Source: Candidatus Latescibacterota bacterium
GTDB lineage: Bacteria > Latescibacterota > UBA2968 > GCA-2709665
NCBI GenBank assembly: GCA_963667175.2
Contig: CAXXXF010000015.1
Location: 480,001-544,000 of the forward strand
Direction: 5' to 3'
DNA length: 64,000 nt
The translations under genes were made by a program, and so were the position numbers. Shown here in pieces: positions 43,499 to 53,109 of this stretch. The notes beneath the pieces are model-generated. The model saw only the letters and a list, made by a program, of their open reading frames with translations, was not told the origin of the DNA and did no database searches. Position 1 is the first letter of the stretch. Each line of letters opens with the position of its first letter.

Positions 43499-44569
43499 AT
43501 GACGAAATCCGATCCGTATGAAAAAGGCCTCGCGGCCGGTGAGGCGGCCGCTTCAGCCGCCGGGGATACATCACAGTCATCGCCGAACGGCGGGCGCATG
43601 TACGTGCGCACCCAGAGTTTCGGGTCCACCGATGCGGAATTGCGCTTTCTGCAGCGCTGCGGCGTGCGCCACAAGGCCGTCGTCTTTCCCTTCCACGAAG
43701 ACCGTGGCTGGGACCTCGACGAGCTGGCCCAGGTAAGGGAGCGCCATGAGGCGTTCGGGATCACGCTGGATATGAGCTCGCTGCCCATCTACGAGCGTTT
43801 TCCCAACATCATCTATTATGGCAAGAGCCCGGAGCGCGACCGGGAGATCGACGTCGTATGCGAGATGATCCGGACCGCTTCGCGCGCGGGCATCGACTCG
43901 CTGCGATACAACACCTGCGTCCTGCCCATCGACCGAACCGAACCGGAAGAAGGCCGCGGCGGGTTCTACCATACCGCGTTCCGCCTGGAGAAAATCCCGG
44001 CGGAAGACAAGGCCAGGCTGACCGAGGCCGGGCGCGTCACGGCCGACATGTACTGGGAAAGAATCGAGTATCTGCTGGAACGCATGATTCCGGTGGCGGA
44101 AGAATTCAAGGTTCGAATGGGCAATTCCCAGGAGGACCCCGCCACACCCCCCGGCTACCGGGGCGTTGACAAGGTCCTCAATGACTTCGAGGGCATGAAG
44201 CGTTTCATCGAGATAAAGCGCGGTCCGTATCACGGCTGGAACTTCTGCGTGGGCTCCGTTGCCGAAGGGCTCAAAGACCCGGCCAGTGAAATCTACCCCA
44301 TCATCGAGTACTTCGGCAGCCGGAATACGATCTTCCTGGTCCACTACCGCAACATCATCGGGGGCCAGTACAGCTTCCGCGAGTCTCTGCCCGATGAAGG
44401 CGACATGGACTTCCACCTCGTCTTGAAGGCGCTGAAGGACACGGGCTACCGTTACGGCATCGATCCCGACCACGTCCCGTGGACGGACGACGATCCGAAC
44501 CGCTCCTACCAGTCCTACGCCTACTGCTTCGGCTACATCAACGCCATGATTCAAGCGGTGTATGGGTAG
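43499..44569 (+). CDS. uxuA: Mannonate dehydratase (UxuA) family protein
   Basis: RDREID, YLLE..IPVAEE..VRM, NFCVG, VHYRN, DEGDMD, PDHVP, FGYINAM. Confidence 0.75.
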   Translation: MTKSDPYEKGLAAGEAAASAAGDTSQSSPNGGRMYVRTQSFGSTDAELRFLQRCGVRHKAVVFPFHEDRGWDLDELAQVRERHEAFGITLDMSSLPIYERFPNIIYYGKSPERDREIDVVCEMIRTASRAGIDSLRYNTCVLPIDRTEPEEGRGGFYHTAFRLEKIPAEDKARLTEAGRVTADMYWERIEYLLERMIPVAEEFKVRMGNSQEDPATPPGYRGVDKVLNDFEGMKRFIEIKRGPYHGWNFCVGSVAEGLKDPASEIYPIIEYFGSRNTIFLVHYRNIIGGQYSFRESLPDEGDMDFHLVLKALKDTGYRYGIDPDHVPWTDDDPNRSYQSYAYCFGYINAMIQAVYG

Positions 44570-44668
44570 CACAGATGTATGTGGACCCTCCACCTTGCCA
44601 CGGAACTGCTCCCCGCCATTCCTTCCGGTCCGGACAACCGAACCGGCGCGCGGGCAAAGGACAACAAC

Positions 44669-45514
44669 ATGGAACCAGCTGAAATCGCGCACCATATCAG
44701 GGAAAACGGCTACTGCATCGTTCAGGACGTCATCCCCTCAGGGGAAGTGGGCAGGATCCGCGAGCGCGTTGTGCGGGCGCAGGCCGCCCAGGACGCCGCC
44801 CACCAGGCCAGGGAGAAGGCGACTCGAGCCAGGGGCCACCGGGTTGGAGCCCGCGGCGTGGGCGTGCTCAAGCAGGCGCTCAATGAAGACCAGTCTTTCG
44901 CACCGTACCTGGCCGACCGGCGGATCATCGGGACCCTCGAAATCTTTTTCGGACCCTGGCTGCGGGTCTCCTGCACCGACGCCGTGGTGAACCACTCGGG
45001 GAACGAGCGCGGCTACTGGCACGCGGACTGGCCGTTCAACCAGACGAACGCCTCCAATGTCCCGGCGCCCTACCCGGATGTGATGATGCACGCGTCGTCG
45101 CTGTGGATGCTGACCGATTTCTCCCATGCCAACGGCGGGACGCTGCTGTTGCCGGGCACGCACCGGAAGAACCGCAATCCGGCGACGGGAGACCTGCCCG
45201 GCTTCGACAATGAGGCGCCGCAGCCGGACGAGATCAACGCCCAGGGAAGGGCGGGATGCGTGCTGCTTTACGACAGCCGGCAATGGCACGCGGTTGCGCC
45301 CAACCGGAGCGGCAGCCCCCGGGTGGCCCTGATCGTGCGCTACGCTCCCTGGTGGCTGAACCTGAATCCCACGCACGTAGGCACGCCGGAGCACGAGATG
45401 ATGGTGGTGGAGACCGGCGGGAAGAACTACGAGATGGAGCCCCTTCGCCGCGACGTATACGACGGGCTTCCGGAGGACGTGAAGCCGCTCTTCCGGCACT
45501 TCGTGGGCAAATAA
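44669..45514 (+). CDS. PhyH-family dioxygenase (HxD)
   Basis: WHADWP, NGGTLLLPGTH, WHA...NRS...R. Confidence 0.9.
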   Translation: MEPAEIAHHIRENGYCIVQDVIPSGEVGRIRERVVRAQAAQDAAHQAREKATRARGHRVGARGVGVLKQALNEDQSFAPYLADRRIIGTLEIFFGPWLRVSCTDAVVNHSGNERGYWHADWPFNQTNASNVPAPYPDVMMHASSLWMLTDFSHANGGTLLLPGTHRKNRNPATGDLPGFDNEAPQPDEINAQGRAGCVLLYDSRQWHAVAPNRSGSPRVALIVRYAPWWLNLNPTHVGTPEHEMMVVETGGKNYEMEPLRRDVYDGLPEDVKPLFRHFVGK

Positions 45515-45650
45515 GCGAGCGGTTGAGGGGTGCGGGGGAGTTTGAAGACCTACATAACGATTTTTTTTAAGTCTCACGAACGCAATCTACGGGGCATCTG
45601 TCCAGCATTAATTGGAAATCTCTCGACAAGCCGGCAAGGGAATCTCGAAA

Positions 45651-46604
45651 ATGGACATCCTAGCGGAGTTGAATAGCAAACATGAGGCGCTGCATCGGGA
45701 CGCCGCGTACTCTGGATTAGGTGCTGTCATCGGACACATCGAGATGGGAGAAAGACACCTCGCTTCTTCCAGAAAGGAGCGAGACGAACGACTGTGCAAC
45801 GACGTCATTTATCGCACGAATCAAGCGTTTGAAGGAGCGCTTAAAGAGGCTTACTCACGTTTAACAGGAAAATCCCCCGAAAAATTGACACCTCATCAAA
45901 TCGAACGATATTTTGAGAAAAATAACGTACTACACAAGCGTGTTCTTGATTTGTTTACCAATTATCGGTTGAATTGGCGGAATCCATCTACCCATGACCA
46001 CATCCTCGCGTTCAGTGACTCGGAAGCCTTCCTCGCGATAATCAACATATCAGCATTCGCGGCCGTTCTGATGGACCAGATAATCGAAGCGGCTGCGACA
46101 GAAGAAGAACGAAATGCAGTTGACAAGCGACGCTCGGAAATTGAACAAACGCTTGGTGACGTACAGTCCCAGAGCATTTACGACCGTCTTCTGTCGTACT
46201 TAAAAGTCTTTAACGACGAACTCCGAACTCAGAATCTTGATAATGTACTTACCGAGACCCAAGTTCTTGGTCGACTAAACGGCTTCATTATGGAATTAAA
46301 TAAAGACCTTACTATTGAGCGAGAAGCTGGAGCCCCACACGGTAGTCACTATAGGGCGGATCTACTTGTAGAGTCAGAACAAGAACGAGTACTCGTTGAA
46401 CTAAAGCGCCCTAACCTGAATCGACGCGGGTTTGCTGAAGCAAAGCATCAATTAGCTAGTTACTTGGAGAAATCAGATGTTAGCGCCGCTATCCTTTTTG
46501 TACCGTCTACTACCGGCGAGGTACGGGCGTTAGAGACAGAGTGGCCAAAGGGTAAAGGAACTCTTTCGGTGGGTCTGGTAATCCCCGAGGAATGGGTCGA
46601 ATAG
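45651..46604 (+). CDS. HEPN + PD-(D/E)xK nuclease fusion, candidate defence protein
   Basis: AFEGALK and RNPSTH (RxxxxH); YRADLLV...VELK and QLASY; AT-richer than flanks. Confidence 0.65.
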   Translation: MDILAELNSKHEALHRDAAYSGLGAVIGHIEMGERHLASSRKERDERLCNDVIYRTNQAFEGALKEAYSRLTGKSPEKLTPHQIERYFEKNNVLHKRVLDLFTNYRLNWRNPSTHDHILAFSDSEAFLAIINISAFAAVLMDQIIEAAATEEERNAVDKRRSEIEQTLGDVQSQSIYDRLLSYLKVFNDELRTQNLDNVLTETQVLGRLNGFIMELNKDLTIEREAGAPHGSHYRADLLVESEQERVLVELKRPNLNRRGFAEAKHQLASYLEKSDVSAAILFVPSTTGEVRALETEWPKGKGTLSVGLVIPEEWVE

Positions 46605-47143
46605 ATGGAGGCAGACTTATAGTCTATGGTGACGTGATGTGCGCGTAGATCTAGTCCCGATATACTGGGAATTTGCAGCCTTGTACCGCTGCGAAAAATG
46701 CGGAATTTACACCTTCAGTCGCACAGTTTCTCTGTATATACAGTAAACTAACGAATGGCCAAACACGAATGACAGGTCCGGCTAGCCTGTTTGTTCGGTG
46801 AAATTTGTAGTACTTGAGTCAGGTCTCCTGATGGGAACGCTCAATTGGGGCATGTTTTTATCGACACAATCACGCTCTTACAACAACACGCCTTGGCGGT
46901 CTGAGGCGAAGCCTCGTTAGATCACGCGGTTTCCAAAGTGTACATCGGCGCCGCCGTGATCGGCGGAAGTTTGGATTTAGAGGAAGGCGCCTTTTATCTT
47001 TTTGCGGGGCGAGGAGGCGGCCGGTTTTGTTATATACAGGTATGAATTGGAATGTCGGCTGTTTCGCGAGAACCAACGGAAATATCTCTAAACATGTTAG
47101 AGTCTTACAGTAAGACTTCAACGCAAGATGCGTAGAAGTTTGT

Positions 47144-48679
47144 TCATGCTGCTTGGATAGCGTTCCGGTTTGTGTGGTTGTCGTATAGTGTCAGTGAAGT
47201 CGCGAGGGTGACGTGTCCGGCCTGTGTGACGCGCCATCTTCTGGACCGAGGTATTTTAGCGATCAGGCCTCGGACGTGTAGACGTTTGAGGAGTCGGCTG
47301 ACGGCGTTGGCTTGTCGTCGTCGCTGGTCGAGGGTTCTGGGTTGTTTGAAGAGGTGTTTTCGGATGTCCCGATTGCGGAAGCCCATCAGGGCGTGTTCGC
47401 CTTTCAGGACGGCGGTGAAGAGGTCGAGGTCGCGGGTGTCGGCGGGATTGAAGCCCCGATAGGTCCGCCCCTTGTGCCTGCGTGGTCGGGCAAGTGCGGC
47501 GAGGCTGTGACGGCTCTTCCCGGTGTCTGGTGCTGCTGCCAGCGCCTGAAGATAGTGTTGGTTGGCCTTCAATGAGATCTCCCGATAGCGGTAGAGGTTG
47601 GCCACCCCTTTGGCCATGGGATACCAGCCCATCACGCGTTGTCCTTGCCGTATGCCCTGGCGGCGGACCTTGAACTGCCTTGGATGGTTGATCACTGTCT
47701 CTATGCGTAGTACGCGCCCGTGTTTGTCGTACATTTTTATCCAGTTCTCACACATCCGGTGTTTGACCCGTGCGCCGGGTTGGCGTTTGTTTTTGAAGTC
47801 CGTGAGGACTTCGCCCTGAAAGTTGCCGTGGAGTTTGCGTCCCAGGAAGGTCAGGATGTCCTGGGGAGAGAAGCACAGCACCGTATGTCTGAGCAGATTT
47901 TCATACAGCACCTTCAGGGCGTGGGGGCTTGTGAACATCACGTCGGTGGCGAACTCAGCCTGGTCAACGACCCAGTAATAGTCCATTCCCGAAAGCAGGT
48001 CTTTGAGCAGGGGGTTGACCCTGCGGGCAAGCCCGGAGAGAATGCGCGGCCAATTTTTCTCGACAAAACGATCGGCAAACCGTTGCGCCCGGGCCACGTC
48101 GTCGATCCATAGAAACGCGTTGTCTGCTTTGCGATAGGCAATGCCGTTTTTATCGAGCTTGCGCGCCAGGTATTCGTGGCCATTGAGACAGACCTGCACC
48201 ACCAGGGGGAACCACGACTGGATGCGGATATGCAGCAACCCGAACTCACGGTCGATATAGTAGAAATAGTAGCACAGGCACTTCCGCCGGGCGTTGCGCA
48301 GGCGAGGCCTTCCTTTCCCTGGAACCAGCTTGAAACTCTGACAGCCCTCCACGGCGCGGTACACACAGACCAGGCCGCGGGTGATCCCATCTCGTTGGGC
48401 GATGCGTCGCGCTTCCTCCTCTTTCCTGACGGTGTTGCGGTCGAGATAGAGGAACGGGCGCTTGTGCCTGCTCGCCATCGCCTCCGCGTGGGCTTTGATC
48501 GTTTTGGAATGCATCGTCACAAAACGCTTGAAGTCCTTCAACAAAAAACCCTGATTACCCATGAAACGCTCCATCGCATCGCCAAATCCCAACGGCAGGT
48601 ACCCCTTGAACAGAACCCGATCAAAACACGATACCACGCCACTGATTTTTTCATTATATTGGTCCACGAAGTCGTTCAC
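47144..48679 (-). CDS. Putative transposase / Rep-like protein (511 aa) with C-terminal wHTH
   Basis: AGGAGG + GTG; FDRVLFKGYLP, LNGHEYLAR, KMYDK...LRIETVIN; basic wHTH-like tail LKRLHVRGLIAKIPRSRRWRVT. Confidence 0.7.
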   Translation of the reverse strand: MNDFVDQYNEKISGVVSCFDRVLFKGYLPLGFGDAMERFMGNQGFLLKDFKRFVTMHSKTIKAHAEAMASRHKRPFLYLDRNTVRKEEEARRIAQRDGITRGLVCVYRAVEGCQSFKLVPGKGRPRLRNARRKCLCYYFYYIDREFGLLHIRIQSWFPLVVQVCLNGHEYLARKLDKNGIAYRKADNAFLWIDDVARAQRFADRFVEKNWPRILSGLARRVNPLLKDLLSGMDYYWVVDQAEFATDVMFTSPHALKVLYENLLRHTVLCFSPQDILTFLGRKLHGNFQGEVLTDFKNKRQPGARVKHRMCENWIKMYDKHGRVLRIETVINHPRQFKVRRQGIRQGQRVMGWYPMAKGVANLYRYREISLKANQHYLQALAAAPDTGKSRHSLAALARPRRHKGRTYRGFNPADTRDLDLFTAVLKGEHALMGFRNRDIRKHLFKQPRTLDQRRRQANAVSRLLKRLHVRGLIAKIPRSRRWRVTQAGHVTLATSLTLYDNHTNRNAIQAA

Positions 48680-50154
48680 GGCGTTCCTCCTTGGATTGAT
48701 GGCGGTCGGGACCACCATCATAACGGACGAACGCCGCTTTTCATACCACAAAACAACCTGCCGCTTCAATACCACACTTCAGGACGGCGGTGAAGAGGTC
48801 GAGGTCGCGGGTGTCGGCGGGATTGAAGCCCCGATAGGTCCGCCCCTTGTGCCTGCGTGGTCGGGCAAGTGCGGCGAGGCTGTGACGGCTCTTCCCGGTG
48901 TCTGGTGCTGCTGCCAGCGCCTGAAGATAGTGTTGGTTGGCCTTCAATGAGATCTCCCGATAGCGGTAGAGGTTGGCCACCCCTTTGGCCATGGGATACC
49001 AGCCCATCACGCGTTGTCCTTGCCGTATGCCCTGGCGGCGGACCTTGAACTGCCTTGGATGGTTGATCACTGTCTCTATGCGTAGTACGCGCCCGTGTTT
49101 GTCGTACATTTTTATCCAGTTCTCACACATCCGGTGTTTGACCCGTGCGCCGGGTTGGCGTTTGTTTTTGAAGTCCGTGAGGACTTCGCCCTGAAAGTTG
49201 CCGTGGAGTTTGCGTCCCAGGAAGGTCAGGATGTCCTGGGGAGAGAAGCACAGCACCGTATGTCTGAGCAGATTTTCATACAGCACCTTCAGGGCGTGGG
49301 GGCTTGTGAACATCACGTCGGTGGCGAACTCAGCCTGGTCAACGACCCAGTAATAGTCCATTCCCGAAAGCAGGTCTTTGAGCAGGGGGTTGACCCTGCG
49401 GGCAAGCCCGGAGAGAATGCGCGGCCAATTTTTCTCGACAAAACGATCGGCAAACCGTTGCGCCCGGGCCACGTCGTCGATCCATAGAAACGCGTTGTCT
49501 GCTTTGCGATAGGCAATGCCGTTTTTATCGAGCTTGCGCGCCAGGTATTCGTGGCCATTGAGACAGACCTGCACCACCAGGGGGAACCACGACTGGATGC
49601 GGATATGCAGCAACCCGAACTCACGGTCGATATAGTAGAAATAGTAGCACAGGCACTTCCGCCGGGCGTTGCGCAGGCGAGGCCTTCCTTTCCCTGGAAC
49701 CAGCTTGAAACTCTGACAGCCCTCCACGGCGCGGTACACACAGACCAGGCCGCGGGTGATCCCATCTCGTTGGGCGATGCGTCGCGCTTCCTCCTCTTTC
49801 CTGACGGTGTTGCGGTCGAGATAGAGGAACGGGCGCTTGTGCCTGCTCGCCATCGCCTCCGCGTGGGCTTTGATCGTTTTGGAATGCATCGTCACAAAAC
49901 GCTTGAAGTCCTTCAACAAAAAACCCTGATTACCCATGAAACGCTCCATCGCATCGCCAAATCCCAACGGCAGGTACCCCTTGAACAGAACCCGATCAAA
50001 ACACGATACCACGCCACTGATTTTTTCATTATATTGGTCCACGAAGTCGTTCACGGCGTTCCTCCTTGGATTGATGGCGGTCGGGACCACCATCATAACG
50101 GACGAACGCCGCTTTTCATACCACAAAACAACCTGCCGCTTCAATACCACACTT
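47403..50154. repeat. Tandem direct duplication, period 1375 bp
   Basis: 47403-48779 = 48778-50154; ORF-track entries recur with offset 1375; 2-bp TT junction overlap. Confidence 0.95.
48741..50054 (-). pseudogene. 3'-truncated second copy of the transposase-like gene
   Basis: Identical up to ...LFTAVLK, then runs through the junction (CGIEAAGCFVV*), losing the wHTH. Confidence 0.85.
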
Positions 50155-50317
50155 TTTGGTTGCGGCTGAGCAAAGCGAAGCCGCCTTAGGAGTTCAAGCA
50201 ACAAGAGCCGCTGTTCCTAGCCGCTCAAGGTATTATTCGGACCCGGCACGAATTGCCGTATCTGTTCGATATTACAACGGTTAGGTAACATCTCAAATCA
50301 GTTAGAAATGGACGCGC

Positions 50318-51376
50318 TTGGACATATTTAAGGAAGTTAAACCGGTTGAGCTTAGGCGTCTTCCTGATCGACACGACCTAGCACACGCTGTCGCGTTCTT
50401 CTTCCACGACGAACTCGCGCGCCTTGTAGTGGAACTAGAGAGGGCAGACTCATTGTCCGTTTCGTTCCAACTGAGAGAGGGGGAATTGGAAGAACTCGAT
50501 GGCCTTGTTGGGGACGAATTGTTCCAATGGCTCGTCAGCACAAATAGGGCGGATGTCGCCGATGAATTGACGTATCGTGAACTCACTGTCGCCGTATTGT
50601 CTGATGCTTGCCATTTTTTGTGTGAGTCCCTACTTGCAAGTGGCAAAGGGAAGCTCGCCGTAGCCTATGCTCTCCTTCGCAAGCCGTTCAAAGAGAGCCT
50701 CCTTCTGCTCGAGTGGCTCTGCGGTTCACAGGAGGAATTCCTGCTGAGGTTCAGCGGAAAATCCGTTGACACCTACGTACTCAACCGTCTGCCAAAGGAA
50801 GAGCGGCTGGAGATCATTCGGGCCGCCGCTAGAAATGTGGATCTTCCTGGTATCGACGAGAAATTGTTGTGGTTGGTTCGATATTCCAAGGAGTACCACA
50901 ACAGCCTTGAGACTTTGTGGACCAAGGCTACACATTTGGTCACATCGGTAAAAGCGTCGGCTACCGAACCCAGCAATCTAAACTTTGTATTCTCCCGGGA
51001 ATCTGCCATTGATGATCAGTGGGATCACTACTACTCGATCGTCCCTCTTATCCTTCGGTACTTCGTTGGGGTAGCTGAACACGTCGCTTCTCGATTCGTC
51101 GCGTGGGATGACAAACATCGTTCCACTCAGCTTTTTCTTCGAGACTTGGCTTTCATGCGTTTTGCCACCCGGCCGGGTGGTTCAGAAAACCTCAATGTGG
51201 ACTCTGATTCCCTCTTCACAGATCTGGCGACGATGGGCTTTCAGTGTACGGAATGCCTCGACACCGTGAACATCGGTGGTGATGGAGTCGACCGGCTGTG
51301 GTTGCGATCAGAAGTGAAGTGCCGTAATTGTGGTCATGAATACAGCGCCTGGGACTTCATGGGTGGTGCCAACTAG
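50318..51376 (+). CDS. HEPN-like helical protein with C-terminal CxxC-CxxC zinc finger
   Basis: AYALLRKPFKE, LWTKATH; CTEC...CRNC; AT-richer. Confidence 0.6.
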   Translation: MDIFKEVKPVELRRLPDRHDLAHAVAFFFHDELARLVVELERADSLSVSFQLREGELEELDGLVGDELFQWLVSTNRADVADELTYRELTVAVLSDACHFLCESLLASGKGKLAVAYALLRKPFKESLLLLEWLCGSQEEFLLRFSGKSVDTYVLNRLPKEERLEIIRAAARNVDLPGIDEKLLWLVRYSKEYHNSLETLWTKATHLVTSVKASATEPSNLNFVFSRESAIDDQWDHYYSIVPLILRYFVGVAEHVASRFVAWDDKHRSTQLFLRDLAFMRFATRPGGSENLNVDSDSLFTDLATMGFQCTECLDTVNIGGDGVDRLWLRSEVKCRNCGHEYSAWDFMGGAN

Positions 51377-51723
51377 GAGACTAGCACCTAGGTTGCGTGC
51401 ACGGCGTACCCTCGAATATAGTCTTACTGCTGCTTCCGAAGGCAGCGTCCTCCGACCCAACCGACCGAATAAAGACCAGCATCTGAGCGTAAATTGTAAT
51501 CGCGAAGAGTGGGTAACTTGGGGTGGGGTGGATAGAGGAGGTGTCTACCCTGAGAGCCTTCGCCGACCCTTCTTCAGTTCTTCGTGAAGCACAGGTATAG
51601 TGTCTCGATGCAGATTGGCTTACCAGAAGTCGGTTTGGAGATTTCTCGTGTTTCGAGCAGCCTATATTTCTCGTAGTTCAGAAAGTGTTCGATTAGAGGG
51701 CGAATGGATAAACCCAAGGAGGG

Positions 51724-51924
51724 ATGATGAGGTATAAAATCGCGCTTCACAAATCCGAAGAAGGCTATAGTGTCTCCGTACCCGGCCTGCCTGGTTGCTG
51801 GTCGCAGGGAGCCACAGAAGTTGACGCGATTGCAAACATCGAGGCGGCCATACGCGAGTATCTTGAAGTTGTTGACAAATTGCTGGACAATGTAGAAGTA
51901 CGAGAAATCGAGCTGACGGTATAG
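51724..51924 (+). CDS. hicB: HicB-family antitoxin (short)
   Basis: GYSVSVPGLPGCWSQGATEVDAIANIEAAI. Confidence 0.9.
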   Translation: MMRYKIALHKSEEGYSVSVPGLPGCWSQGATEVDAIANIEAAIREYLEVVDKLLDNVEVREIELTV

Positions 51925-51925
51925 C

Positions 51926-52138
51926 ATGCCGAGACTGCCAGGAGTAAACCATTTGGATGCAGTCCGTGCATTAGAGAAAGCAGGATTTTACCTGGCACGC
52001 CAAAGCAAGCACGTAGTTATGACAGATGGCGTGCGCATTCTGACAATCCCGCGAAACAACCCTGTGAATGCCTTTACGATGGGAGGAATCGTCAGGGACG
52101 CGGGATTATCTATTGAGGAATTTCGCAAGCTCTTGTGA
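51926..52138 (+). CDS. hicA: HicA-family toxin
   Basis: VRALEKAGF...RQSKHVVM...TIPR...GIVRDAGLSIEEF. Confidence 0.9.
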   Translation: MPRLPGVNHLDAVRALEKAGFYLARQSKHVVMTDGVRILTIPRNNPVNAFTMGGIVRDAGLSIEEFRKLL

Positions 52139-52353
52139 TGGCCAAACTTCGGTACTGAAAATTCCCTGCCATCGGCGGATCTTGCGGTCCACATTCGGCT
52201 GTAGACGTGGCCGACCGATCTCAATCTGACGATGCCGGGTTTTTCGCAGGGACGACTGGAAGGTCGGCATTACCCAAACGTAGAGGCGTTCGTTCAAGAC
52301 ACAACTTTGAAACAGGCGAAACGCTGATCTGACCGGATCAGGAGGCAACGCCC

Positions 52354-53109
52354 TTGGAATGGTATGAAGACGAGTCGTTCTGGAAAGCGACGTATCCGTT
52401 TCTTTTTTCCGAGGCGAGGTTTGACGCCGCCGAGCAGCACCTTGACAACATCCTGGATCTGGTCGGCATCGAATCCGGGTCAGTACTGGACCTGTGTTGC
52501 GGCCCGGGCCGCAGCGCGATCCCCCTGGCGCAGCGCGGGTTTCAAGTCACCGCGGTAGACAGGAGCCCGTTTCTTCTGGGCAAAGCGAAGGCGAGGGCGG
52601 CGCACGAGAATCTGAACATTGAATGGATCGAGAGCGATATGCGGGAGTTCGAGCGGCCGGATGCCTTCGATCTGGTCCTCAATCTCAATACCTCGTTTGG
52701 CTACTTCGATGACAAGGACGAGGACATTGGGGTATTGAGCAGGATTCTTGCCAACCTGAAGCCCGGCGGACGTCTCGTCATGGATCTCATGGGCAAGGAG
52801 AAGCTGGCACGAATCTTCCAGCCGACGACGTCCGAAAAGCTTGAAGACGGCACCCTGCTGGTGCAGCGGCACGAGATCTTCGACGAGTGGACACGCGTCA
52901 GGAATGAATGGATTATCATCAAGGGTTCGGAGGTCCGCACCTTCGAGTTTCACCACACGATATATTCAGGGCAGGACCTGAAGGACAGGTTGATTGCCGT
53001 TGGATTTGGCGACGTGAAACTCTACGGGAGTTTCGACGGGGAGGAATACGGCACGGAATCCAACCGGTTTGTGGCGGTCGCCAGGAAACCCTCCCTGACA
53101 GCTGCCTGA
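52354..53109 (+). CDS. Class I SAM-dependent methyltransferase
   Basis: VLDLCCGPG, VTAVD, DMR, SFGYF, LKPGG. Confidence 0.92.
   Translation: MEWYEDESFWKATYPFLFSEARFDAAEQHLDNILDLVGIESGSVLDLCCGPGRSAIPLAQRGFQVTAVDRSPFLLGKAKARAAHENLNIEWIESDMREFERPDAFDLVLNLNTSFGYFDDKDEDIGVLSRILANLKPGGRLVMDLMGKEKLARIFQPTTSEKLEDGTLLVQRHEIFDEWTRVRNEWIIIKGSEVRTFEFHHTIYSGQDLKDRLIAVGFGDVKLYGSFDGEEYGTESNRFVAVARKPSLTAA

Follow-up and report, generated by a model that had tools for sequence, protein, structure and literature searches.

Two similar hairpins on the minus strand of a 64,000-nt stretch of DNA from a Candidatus Latescibacterota bacterium (contig CAXXXF010000015.1, positions 480,001 to 544,000; hereafter the window, whose own numbering is used below) raise the question of which mobile DNA they bound and how it moves. 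A preliminary description of the window took them as the two ends of a single element at 46893..50189, with iteron-like direct repeats just inside the upstream end, and proposed either nick sites accompanied by protein-binding repeats or an insertion targeted into a pre-existing palindrome. The strings it quoted lie on the minus strand where they had been placed, the hairpin strings being CTAAGGCGGCTTCGCTTTGCTCAGCCGCAACCAA at 50189-50156 and CTAACGAGGCTTCGCCTCAGACCGCCAA at 46920-46893 and the direct repeats GTGGTATTGAAGCGGC at 50150-50135 and GTGGTATGAAAAGCGGC at 50124-50108. Both hairpin strings align on the same strand in direct orientation, and each folds into a short stem as single-stranded DNA. 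Their fold energies are unexceptional (z -1.82 and -1.69, matched by 11 and 14 of 200 shuffles, respectively), and the case for the importance of the hairpins comes from comparison between relatives, not from folding energy. The observation is confirmed in part and its interpretation partly supported: the general idea is sound and the anatomy wrong, the two hairpins being left ends of two different elements. The upstream one belongs to a multicopy insertion sequence (IS), which we consider likely to represent a new IS family moved by a Rep_trans-like tyrosine nickase with the logic of IS200/IS605 and IS91, an enzyme assignment suggested by predicted fold and motif pattern without sequence homology.

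The region was compared with the whole genome (5.52 Mb in 18 contigs) by BLAST. Ten full copies of the upstream element, here called family 1, and one more cut by a contig end share 95-100% identity, and their comparison defines a canonical length of 1719 nt. All copies start with CCTAAGGCGGC (CCTAAGGCGGCTTCGC), with TCTAAGG as the single exception, and all end with GACTCTAA (...GAAGTCTTACTGTAAGACTCTAA), equivalent to position 47097 of the window. With copies and flanks placed side by side, the flanks are unrelated to each other, and neither inverted repeats between the ends nor a flanking duplication were found. That this is a mobile element with boundaries at 50190 and 47097 and a CCTAA target is close to certain. 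The copy in the window comprises:

47097..50190, minus strand: family-1 insertion sequence, with boundaries taken from the comparison of its copies; 3094 nt in the window.

50186..50190, minus strand: target pentanucleotide CCTAA abutting the left end, present once in the closest relative's empty site.

48778-50152 and 47403-48777, minus strand: two tandem units of 1375 nt each, from repeat comparison (spacing 1375).

48777..50054, minus strand: truncated first gene copy, codons 1-426 (tblastn, residues 1-426, 100% identity), cut by the duplication junction.

47144..48679, minus strand: intact gene for a 511-aa protein with a GTG start; residues 1-386 TBP/Rep_trans-like, residues 386-511 a MarR-like winged helix.

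The window copy measures 3094 rather than 1719 nt because of the internal 1375-nt tandem duplication, which is exact, is joined through a 4-nt microhomology (AAAG) and begins immediately behind the left-end hairpin and the AACCAAAAAG string that follows it. It could have arisen by slippage during replication, as a side product when the element itself replicates, or through misassembly. Six genome copies are ~96.7% identical to the sub-variant in the window. A Logan contig of 1719 nt from a sponge metagenome corresponds to 47097-47402 joined to 48778-50190, and Logan contigs break at 47095-47097 and at 50190-50193 with varied flanks beyond; spanning neither the 48777/48778 duplication junction nor unique flanks, they neither confirm nor refute the duplication. 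Several sponge-metagenome runs of one study hold the element, together with the left end of the second element described below, with many different flanks, and the element is therefore multicopy in those communities too. Decaying copies were observed at C4:188350-190146, C3:244406-246117 and C15:904328-905912, one of them with two extra inserts (~29 and 52 nt) and two with frameshifted genes, seen as split tblastn matches.

To define the target, the element was removed from 23 insertions, with 0, 1 or 5 nt of CCTAA left in place, and an open frame was sought across the joint. Three of the 23 gave long frames, of at least 112 codons to either side, and did so only with 5 nt left; for two of these three, the intact gene is present in same-genus relatives. 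Exactly 5 nt separate the flanks in all seven aligned orthologous loci, and in the closest relative (flanks 97% and 87% identical) these are CCTAA (L095, ...acagca[CCTAA]gagtccc...). For the third insertion (L091), no flank alignment was obtained with the two loci compared, and the flanks of the window copy itself found no match in 30 relatives except for a conserved segment at 51700-51800. From the 5 nt in the empty sites, which read CCTAA in the closest relative, it follows that the element sits beside a pre-existing CCTAA and that nothing is duplicated, so that the first 5 nt of the canonical form are target and the net insertion is 1714 nt. The empty sites at the two insertions hold just these 5 nt and no hairpin; the hairpin is therefore not part of the target, and the suggestion of an insertion into a pre-existing palindrome has to be given up for this family.

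A related genome carries ten copies, five with CCTAG and five with CCTAA at the left junction, across both internal variants, and 8/8 intact right ends there read CTCTAA (an example of a right tip from a related genome is GAAGTCACACTGTAAGACTCTAA). Similarly, the left junction begins with CCT in 41 of 48 matches in the source genome, with the next 2-3 nt varying, and the right tip stays CTAA in well-preserved matches. A varying left pentanucleotide beside a constant right CTCTAA fits an origin of the former in the target. Since CTAA is common to the 3' end of the element (CTCTAA) and the target (CCTAA), a cut anywhere within these four letters would be compatible with the insertions by themselves; the pattern of variation speaks for a cut behind the pentanucleotide CCTAR. 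A split site of the form CT|AA, as in Rep_trans, is disfavoured by the same pattern, with the left junction varying between CCTAG and CCTAA and the right staying CTCTAA.

The downstream hairpin of the preliminary description lies within a second element:

46782..46922, minus strand: family-2 miniature of 141 nt, with left end ATCTAACGAGGCTTCGCCTC... and right end ...CAAACAGGCTAG; it contains the 46920-46893 string.

46903..46915, minus strand: left hairpin of this miniature, GAGGC-TTC-GCCTC, from fold and alignment.

The sequence from 46922 downward matches four other places in the genome, two of which are full 1837-nt elements (C2:22244-20408 and C4:391680-389863, 93% identical to each other) that begin with ATCTAGCGAGGCTTCGCCTC, end with CAAGCAGGCTAG and encode a protein of 512 aa, 28% identical to that of family 1. 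At 46922-46782 the window holds only the left and right ends of this family 2, and the 175 nt between the family-1 copy and the miniature are not repeated elsewhere in the genome. The family-2 left stem pairs in register with the family-1 stem in a 22-row alignment, with one compensatory A-T pair. The two hairpins are alike and share one orientation because both are left ends of sister families. In the folded ends of family 2, no right-end hairpin was seen. Elements of the two families also occur close together elsewhere, a family-1 miniature lying 90 nt from a full family-2 copy (C4:389554-391680) and another miniature 113 nt from a full copy (C3:244074-246117); this clustering may reflect local hopping or tolerated landing zones.

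At the left end of family 1, a hairpin is followed by a conserved string, direct repeats and a short leader:

50162..50184, minus strand: left-end hairpin with stem GCGGCT, an 11-nt loop and stem AGCCGC, supported by fold, conservation and compensatory changes.

50161-50152, minus strand: conserved string AACCAAAAAG after the left hairpin, from comparison with relatives.

50150-50135 and 50124-50108, minus strand: two direct repeats, candidate binding sites of the winged helix.

50119-50092, minus strand: promoter-like site ATGAAA-16-TATGAT, its -35 overlapped by the second repeat.

50073..50094 (duplicate 48698-48719), minus strand: leader stem-loop GATGGTGG / CCGCCATC, between the promoter-like site and the ribosome-binding site AAGGAGG, which it directly precedes.

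A script scanned the sequence preceding the gene, to a distance of at most 450 nt, in 46 distinct loci of relatives. A composite left motif (CTA, 1-3 nt, a GC-rich perfect stem and AACC) was found in 25 of the 46, and no candidate stem in 13, in part since some ends lie further upstream. The true right end, at 47097, does not resemble these left ends. When 22 left ends from distant relatives are aligned, 99.2% of the cells pair, a value that is partly by construction, as most rows were selected by the perfect-stem script and a few by known motifs. Compensatory changes on both sides occur in four of the six stem pairs, the covariation score of 0.235 (0.052 for shuffles) was reached by none of 500 shuffles, and sliding the partner columns destroys the pairing. 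The stem appears as GCGGCT/AGCCGC, GCGGCC/GGCCGC, GCGGGC/GCCCGC, CCGGC/GCCGG or GAGGC/GCCTC around loops of 3 to 11 nt, and this variable loop length argues for a hairpin rather than a dimer site of fixed spacing. Judged by these alignments, the left-end hairpin is conserved by structure in distant relatives.

The iteron-like repeats are present inside the upstream end as had been described and are strong only in the sub-variant of the window; the six ~96.7% identical copies and the relatives have GGTGGTAGTCAAGAGC in place of the first repeat and TGGGTATGCAAAACGGC in place of the second. They are likely to be binding words for the winged-helix domain and possibly serve autoregulation as well. 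The leader stem-loop keeps its stem in relatives with a different loop; it may control translation of the putative transposase. The left non-coding region of the family-1 element spans 136 nt. Within 44000-53000 of the window, no Rfam family reached its gathering score and a tRNA scan found no tRNA. This also applies to the segment at 51700-51800, ~100 nt that are 82-96% identical across the genus and 83% identical, in the same order, in a genome of another family, for which neither a tRNA nor an Rfam family was called.

The right end carries a hairpin of its own:

47121..47133, minus strand: right-end hairpin ACGCA-TCT-TGCGT, ending 24 nt before the 3' end.

47097..47117, minus strand: right tip AGTCTTACTGTAAGACT followed by CTAA; its last six letters, CTCTAA, form the conserved 3' end.

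The 44-nt right end folds at z -5.13, a value equalled by none of 200 shuffles, and the hairpin is kept as GCGCA-NNN-TGCGC in other family-1-like sub-families. Relatives show no compensatory changes that would maintain a terminal palindrome (AGTCTTAC/GTAAGACT).

Profiles of both family-1 ends were searched through the source genome by nhmmer, yielding 48 left and 44 right matches. These form 34 correctly ordered pairs, of which ten are the full copies, 23 are miniatures spanning 194-340 nt and one spans 1281 nt; 14 left and 10 right ends stand alone. Of the left end the miniatures retain ~55 nt, in which a word resembling GGTAGTGAA occupies the position of the first repeat, and of the right end ~60 nt. 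As both ends are all that the miniatures keep, the ends are the cis-acting parts.

Neither Pfam nor NCBIfam, which includes models for transposase families, gave a match for the catalytic part of the 511-aa protein, nor did a sequence search of the PDB. None of 60 diverse homologs matched PF02486, the Rep_trans family, at E<=0.1, and PF02486 was not found anywhere in the source genome. An AlphaFold model computed with the 60 homologs reached a pLDDT of 93.2. A structure search with the whole protein was dominated by winged-helix matches (residues 386-511, a MarR-like winged helix, Z up to 9.3), and residues 1-386 were therefore folded alone (pLDDT 91.5). Against solved chains, this domain matched TBP (Z 8.6, 176 of 181 residues aligned) and the Rep_trans initiators 4cij_A and 4cwc_A (Z 6.8 each, 189 and 177 residues aligned), the only matches to cover the whole domain, all others covering half of it. 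Foldseek on the PDB returned 4cij_C as top match (E 3.4e-3, probability 0.84; 4cij chains 0.84-0.91), and on viral models (BFVD) 12 matches at E<=1e-3, among them giant-virus TBPs and A0A345MNV4 (E 2.5e-4, probability 1.0). The latter is described as an Inoviridae initiator with a Rep_trans domain in PMC13107129, where Rep_trans enzymes are also said to have the TBP fold.

In the alignment of the 60 members, D20, R21, R325 and E327 are invariant and E242, D246, K315, Y317 and K319 are conserved in at least 90%; in the predicted model, the conserved acidic, tyrosine, lysine and arginine residues sit on beta-strands. As reported for RepDE, the metal ligands are D46, D142 and E214 and the nucleophile is Y191, flanked by R189 and K193, within motifs that include R140-x-D142-x-A144-x-D146 and R212-x-E214 (Carr et al., PMC4797284), and the motifs given for Rep_trans are N' (D), I (RxD), II (T/SxY/ExG), III (YxK) and IV (W/LxRxE) (PMC5714925). 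Four motifs of the 511-aa protein follow in the same order, matched by eye and not by a scored alignment:

Motif N': C-F-D20-R-V-L-F-K-G26, RepC S-F-D46-A-M-T-I-V-G52.

Motif I: Q-A-E242-F-A-T-D246, RepC R-L-D142-L-A-F-D146.

Motif III: I-K-M-Y317-D-K, RepC I-R-I-Y191-N-K; on strand 312-319.

Motif IV: V-L-R325-I-E327, RepC W-R212-V-E214; V323-x-R325-x-E327 on strand 323-330.

The family-2 protein, at 28% identity, keeps D20, E242, Y317, K319, R325 and E327. PF25213 (HVO_A0261_N, an N-terminal domain) was matched by 17 of the 60 members (best E 1.7e-6), which hints at a link to haloarchaeal plasmid proteins.

Homologs of the 511-aa protein number more than 3678 among 8000 candidates scored, and 7483 cluster representatives in a 50%-identity library score at E<=1e-3. 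Most are ~510 aa long, many lie on contigs of 1.7-2 kb, and their sources label them as hypothetical, ArsR or other transcriptional regulator. A scan of species genomes confirmed 294 relatives, of which 79 distinct loci were kept, in genomes labelled Planctomycetota, Acidobacteriota, Latescibacterota, Armatimonadota, Chloroflexi, Gemmatimonadales, Burkholderiales and others; relatives of lower identity (23-34%) occur on plasmids of Burkholderia, Rhodococcus and Mycobacterium. Multi-copy genomes allowed the ends of five further sub-families to be defined. Four of them have a left end of the form [C/T][C/T]TA[A/G]N, GC stem, short loop, matching stem and (A/C)ACC, and a right end (C/T)CTAA. The fifth, whose protein is 47% identical, is 2.15-2.17 kb long and present in 11 copies in one Planctomycetota genome (L057-L071, 11 loci), beginning with TTATAGCAGCATAGCCGCAACC and ending with CCGTATCATT. 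All 11 copies are inserted at TAYAC|NTAY, and an open frame TY|xY runs across the joined flanks in each, mostly at YxYD codons of YD/RHS-repeat genes. The target of this sub-family is therefore a repeated protein-coding motif, and the open frames across the joined flanks imply that it too inserts at a specific target without duplication. We lean, on balance, towards a very large, unannotated bacterial IS superfamily (>7000 protein clusters at 50% identity, in many phyla) that would be moved by a TBP-fold, Rep_trans-related tyrosine nickase and would form a class beyond DDE, DEDD, HUH, serine and tyrosine recombinases and Cas1. Its sub-families choose different short targets (CCTAR, CTAG-type, TAYAC|NTAY); by analogy with IS608, the element ends may read the target and so may be reprogrammable.

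We propose that the single 511-aa protein is the transposase, a TBP/Rep_trans-fold tyrosine nickase with Y317, within K315-x-Y317-x-K319, as its nucleophile and D20, E242 and E327 as its metal ligands. The element would act on one strand, a dimer binding its hairpins and the C-terminal MarR-like winged helix docking on the conserved words just inside the left end. Recognition would involve the GC-rich hairpin 1 nt inside the left boundary and the second hairpin ~24 nt before the right boundary. At the left junction, Y317 would cut 3' of CCTAR and become linked to the 5' end of the element, assuming the 5'-phosphotyrosine polarity reported for Rep_trans (PMC5714925); at the right junction, a cut 3' of the element's own CTCTAA would leave the enzyme linked to the flank. 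Attack of the free 3' ends on the opposite adducts would then give a sealed donor that keeps CCTAA and a single-stranded circle, or else rolling-circle synthesis would be primed and the element copied out, sequence alone not telling cut-out from copy-out. The reverse reaction would insert the element 3' of another CCTAR, with no duplication made and no inverted repeats needed.

Several observations weigh against this proposal. A link to Rep_trans at the sequence level is missing, as seen in the Pfam and NCBIfam searches of the catalytic part, and hhalign gave a probability of 0.23% against a shallow RepC profile of ten sequences, with a sole local alignment that pairs D20 with D46. A homolog search seeded with RepC yielded close relatives (at least 86% identical among the 120 matches listed). 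The structural Z scores of 6.8-8.6 are middling, motif II (T/SxY/ExG) was not recognised in the 511-aa protein, and motif I has Q240 where Rep_trans has R, with the acid, the alanine and the aspartate kept. Rep_trans initiators and MOBT relaxases are described as nicking a conserved CT'AA in the loop of a GC-rich hairpin (PMC9371924); in family 1, CTAA lies outside the hairpins, the loops of most relatives have only 3-4 nt, and the variation at the junctions points to a cut behind CTAA rather than inside it. A clear right-end hairpin or CTAA ends are missing from family 2 and from the YD-targeting sub-family. Orientation relative to local GC skew is unbiased (16 and 18 of 34 with 10-kb and 50-kb flanks, 17 and 17 with 25 kb), a weak test in a genome of 18 contigs whose origin and terminus are not placed.

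The nickase reading has to be weighed against four others. A single 3.3-kb element at 46893-50189, with its related hairpins as origin-like and terminator-like nick sites, was suggested by two strings that align, fold and share strand and direction; we give it practically no credence, since all ten full copies end at the equivalent of 47097, a public contig of 1719 nt equals the canonical element, and 46922-46782 carries both ends of another family with full copies elsewhere, beyond an unrepeated gap of 175 nt. The more general notion of nick sites with binding repeats fits the absence of inverted repeats and duplication, the end hairpins and the nickase-like fold and motifs, and what fails is its anatomy, in which the left ends of two elements became the two ends of one. 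The 511-aa protein could instead only bind DNA through its TBP-like saddle and winged helix, as a regulator or architectural protein, with cutting left to a host enzyme or one supplied in trans. TBP, its best structural match (Z 8.6), is not an enzyme, some homologs are labelled ArsR or other regulators, and no significant sequence match to nuclease families exists. Yet the gene is the only one in thousands of ~1.7-kb elements, with many homologs on contigs of 1.7-2 kb, its invariant acidic, tyrosine, lysine and arginine residues follow the order and strand pattern of the Rep_trans active site, and gene-less miniatures keep both ends, as expected for a product that acts on the ends in trans. 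We judge pure binding to be quite unlikely.

Closer in chemistry, and overlapping with our proposal in this respect, would be an element that is mainly a 1.7-kb rolling-circle replicon, a plasmid or satellite whose Rep integrates at CCTAA, so that the chromosomal copies are integrated episomes. A Rep_trans-like fold joined to a winged helix is the architecture described for archaeal Rep-Arvir initiators (PMC13107129), a hairpin with binding repeats next to it is reminiscent of a double-strand origin, the tandemly duplicated unit inside the element begins immediately behind the hairpin, and many homologs occupy element-length contigs. Such contigs are, however, the usual assembler output for any repeat, here with breaks at the element ends and varied flanks; none of the Logan contigs joins the right end to the left end, though rare forms are not excluded by contigs, and 10 chromosomal copies with 23 miniatures in one genome fit the life style of a transposon. 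We regard a replicon as unlikely. Double-strand site-specific recombination at a short CTA core in both junctions, in the style of IS110 or IS607, would account for CTA(A/G) at both junctions in five of six sub-families examined, for the lack of inverted repeats and duplication, and for a left non-coding region of 136 nt. Against it stand the TBP/Rep_trans-like fold, with no DEDD, serine or tyrosine recombinase domain found, a YD-targeting sub-family without a shared junction core and the absence of an Rfam match in the region; we consider it very unlikely.

If a Rep_trans-like nickase does move these elements, such enzymes would gain a third role, transposition, beside plasmid/phage replication and conjugation. 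The parallel to the HUH enzymes of IS200/IS605, IS91 and Helitrons would be a clear instance of single-strand transposition having evolved convergently. Reannotation as transposases would follow for thousands of genes now called "hypothetical" or "ArsR/MarR regulator", and many short metagenome contigs would be explained as copies of a family repeat. The members of the family are small insertion elements, sequence-specific and free of duplication, that differ in their targets, which makes target reading directly testable.

No published transposase of the Rep_trans type or with a TBP fold was found in full-text literature outside most subscription journals and ISfinder, judged by title and start of abstract. 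Among known insertion sequences, IS110/IS1111, with a DEDD transposase and a bridge or seeker RNA in the non-coding end, differ from family 1, which has no DEDD domain match and no Rfam family at gathering score in 44000-53000. Members of IS200/IS605 (IS608, ISDra2) share with it the lack of inverted repeats and duplication, hairpins near both ends (the right one clear in family 1, not in family 2), miniatures made of ends only, and insertion 3' of a short word that abuts the left end, with a similar word at the right end; the TnpA transposase of IS608 has 5'-phosphotyrosine polarity. They differ in their ~150-aa HUH Y1 transposase, compared with a 511-aa TBP-fold protein without HUH motif or Pfam match, and the strand bias typical of IS608 was not seen here in the weak GC-skew test. 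IS91, ISCR and Helitrons have similarly asymmetric ends, a tetranucleotide-type target abutting one end, no duplication and a hairpin near the 3' end, and the CTRR pattern of Helitron 3' ends fits that of family 1; they use HUH Y2 enzymes, with a helicase in Helitrons, and none of these was matched here.

The enzyme itself is closest to Rep_trans (pT181 RepC, pC221 RepD, RepSTK1; PF02486) and MOBT (NicK, RelSt3, Tn916 Orf20), which have in common a catalytic domain with a TBP-like curved sheet, the same order of residues (F-D, acid-x-A-x-D, basic-x-Y-x-K, hydrophobic-x-R-x-E) and a separate DNA-binding module. As in the family-1 element, a hairpin lies beside their site of action with the binding words adjacent; at pT181-type origins, the binding site is described as adjoining the nick hairpin, which matches the position of the direct repeats here (PMC4797284). 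The loop of the pT181 origin hairpin is CTCTAA, the same hexamer as the 3' end of the family-1 element, which we regard as a lead and not as a test. The family-1 catalytic domain differs in its length of 386 aa, compared with ~200 positions in the Pfam model, and in its lack of detectable sequence homology, and the family-1 junctions lie outside the hairpins, whereas Rep_trans and MOBT nick within the loop. The roles given for Rep_trans and MOBT in PMC5714925 are plasmid/phage replication and conjugation, not transposition. In domain architecture, the nearest likeness to the 511-aa protein is with Rep-Arvir (DUF7845, PF25227; RepSNJ2), described as an N-terminal TBP-like domain invisible by sequence followed by a MarR-like winged helix, with E25, Y283 and E303 as essential residues and a hairpin near the gene as cis site (PMC13107129). 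None of the 60 members matched PF25227 at E<=0.1, and the relative positions of E25, Y283 and E303 are similar to those of D20, Y317 and E327. Rep-Arvir proteins come from archaea, serve the replication of episomes and carry an additional C-terminal domain, whereas family 1 is a multicopy insertion sequence of bacterial chromosomes.

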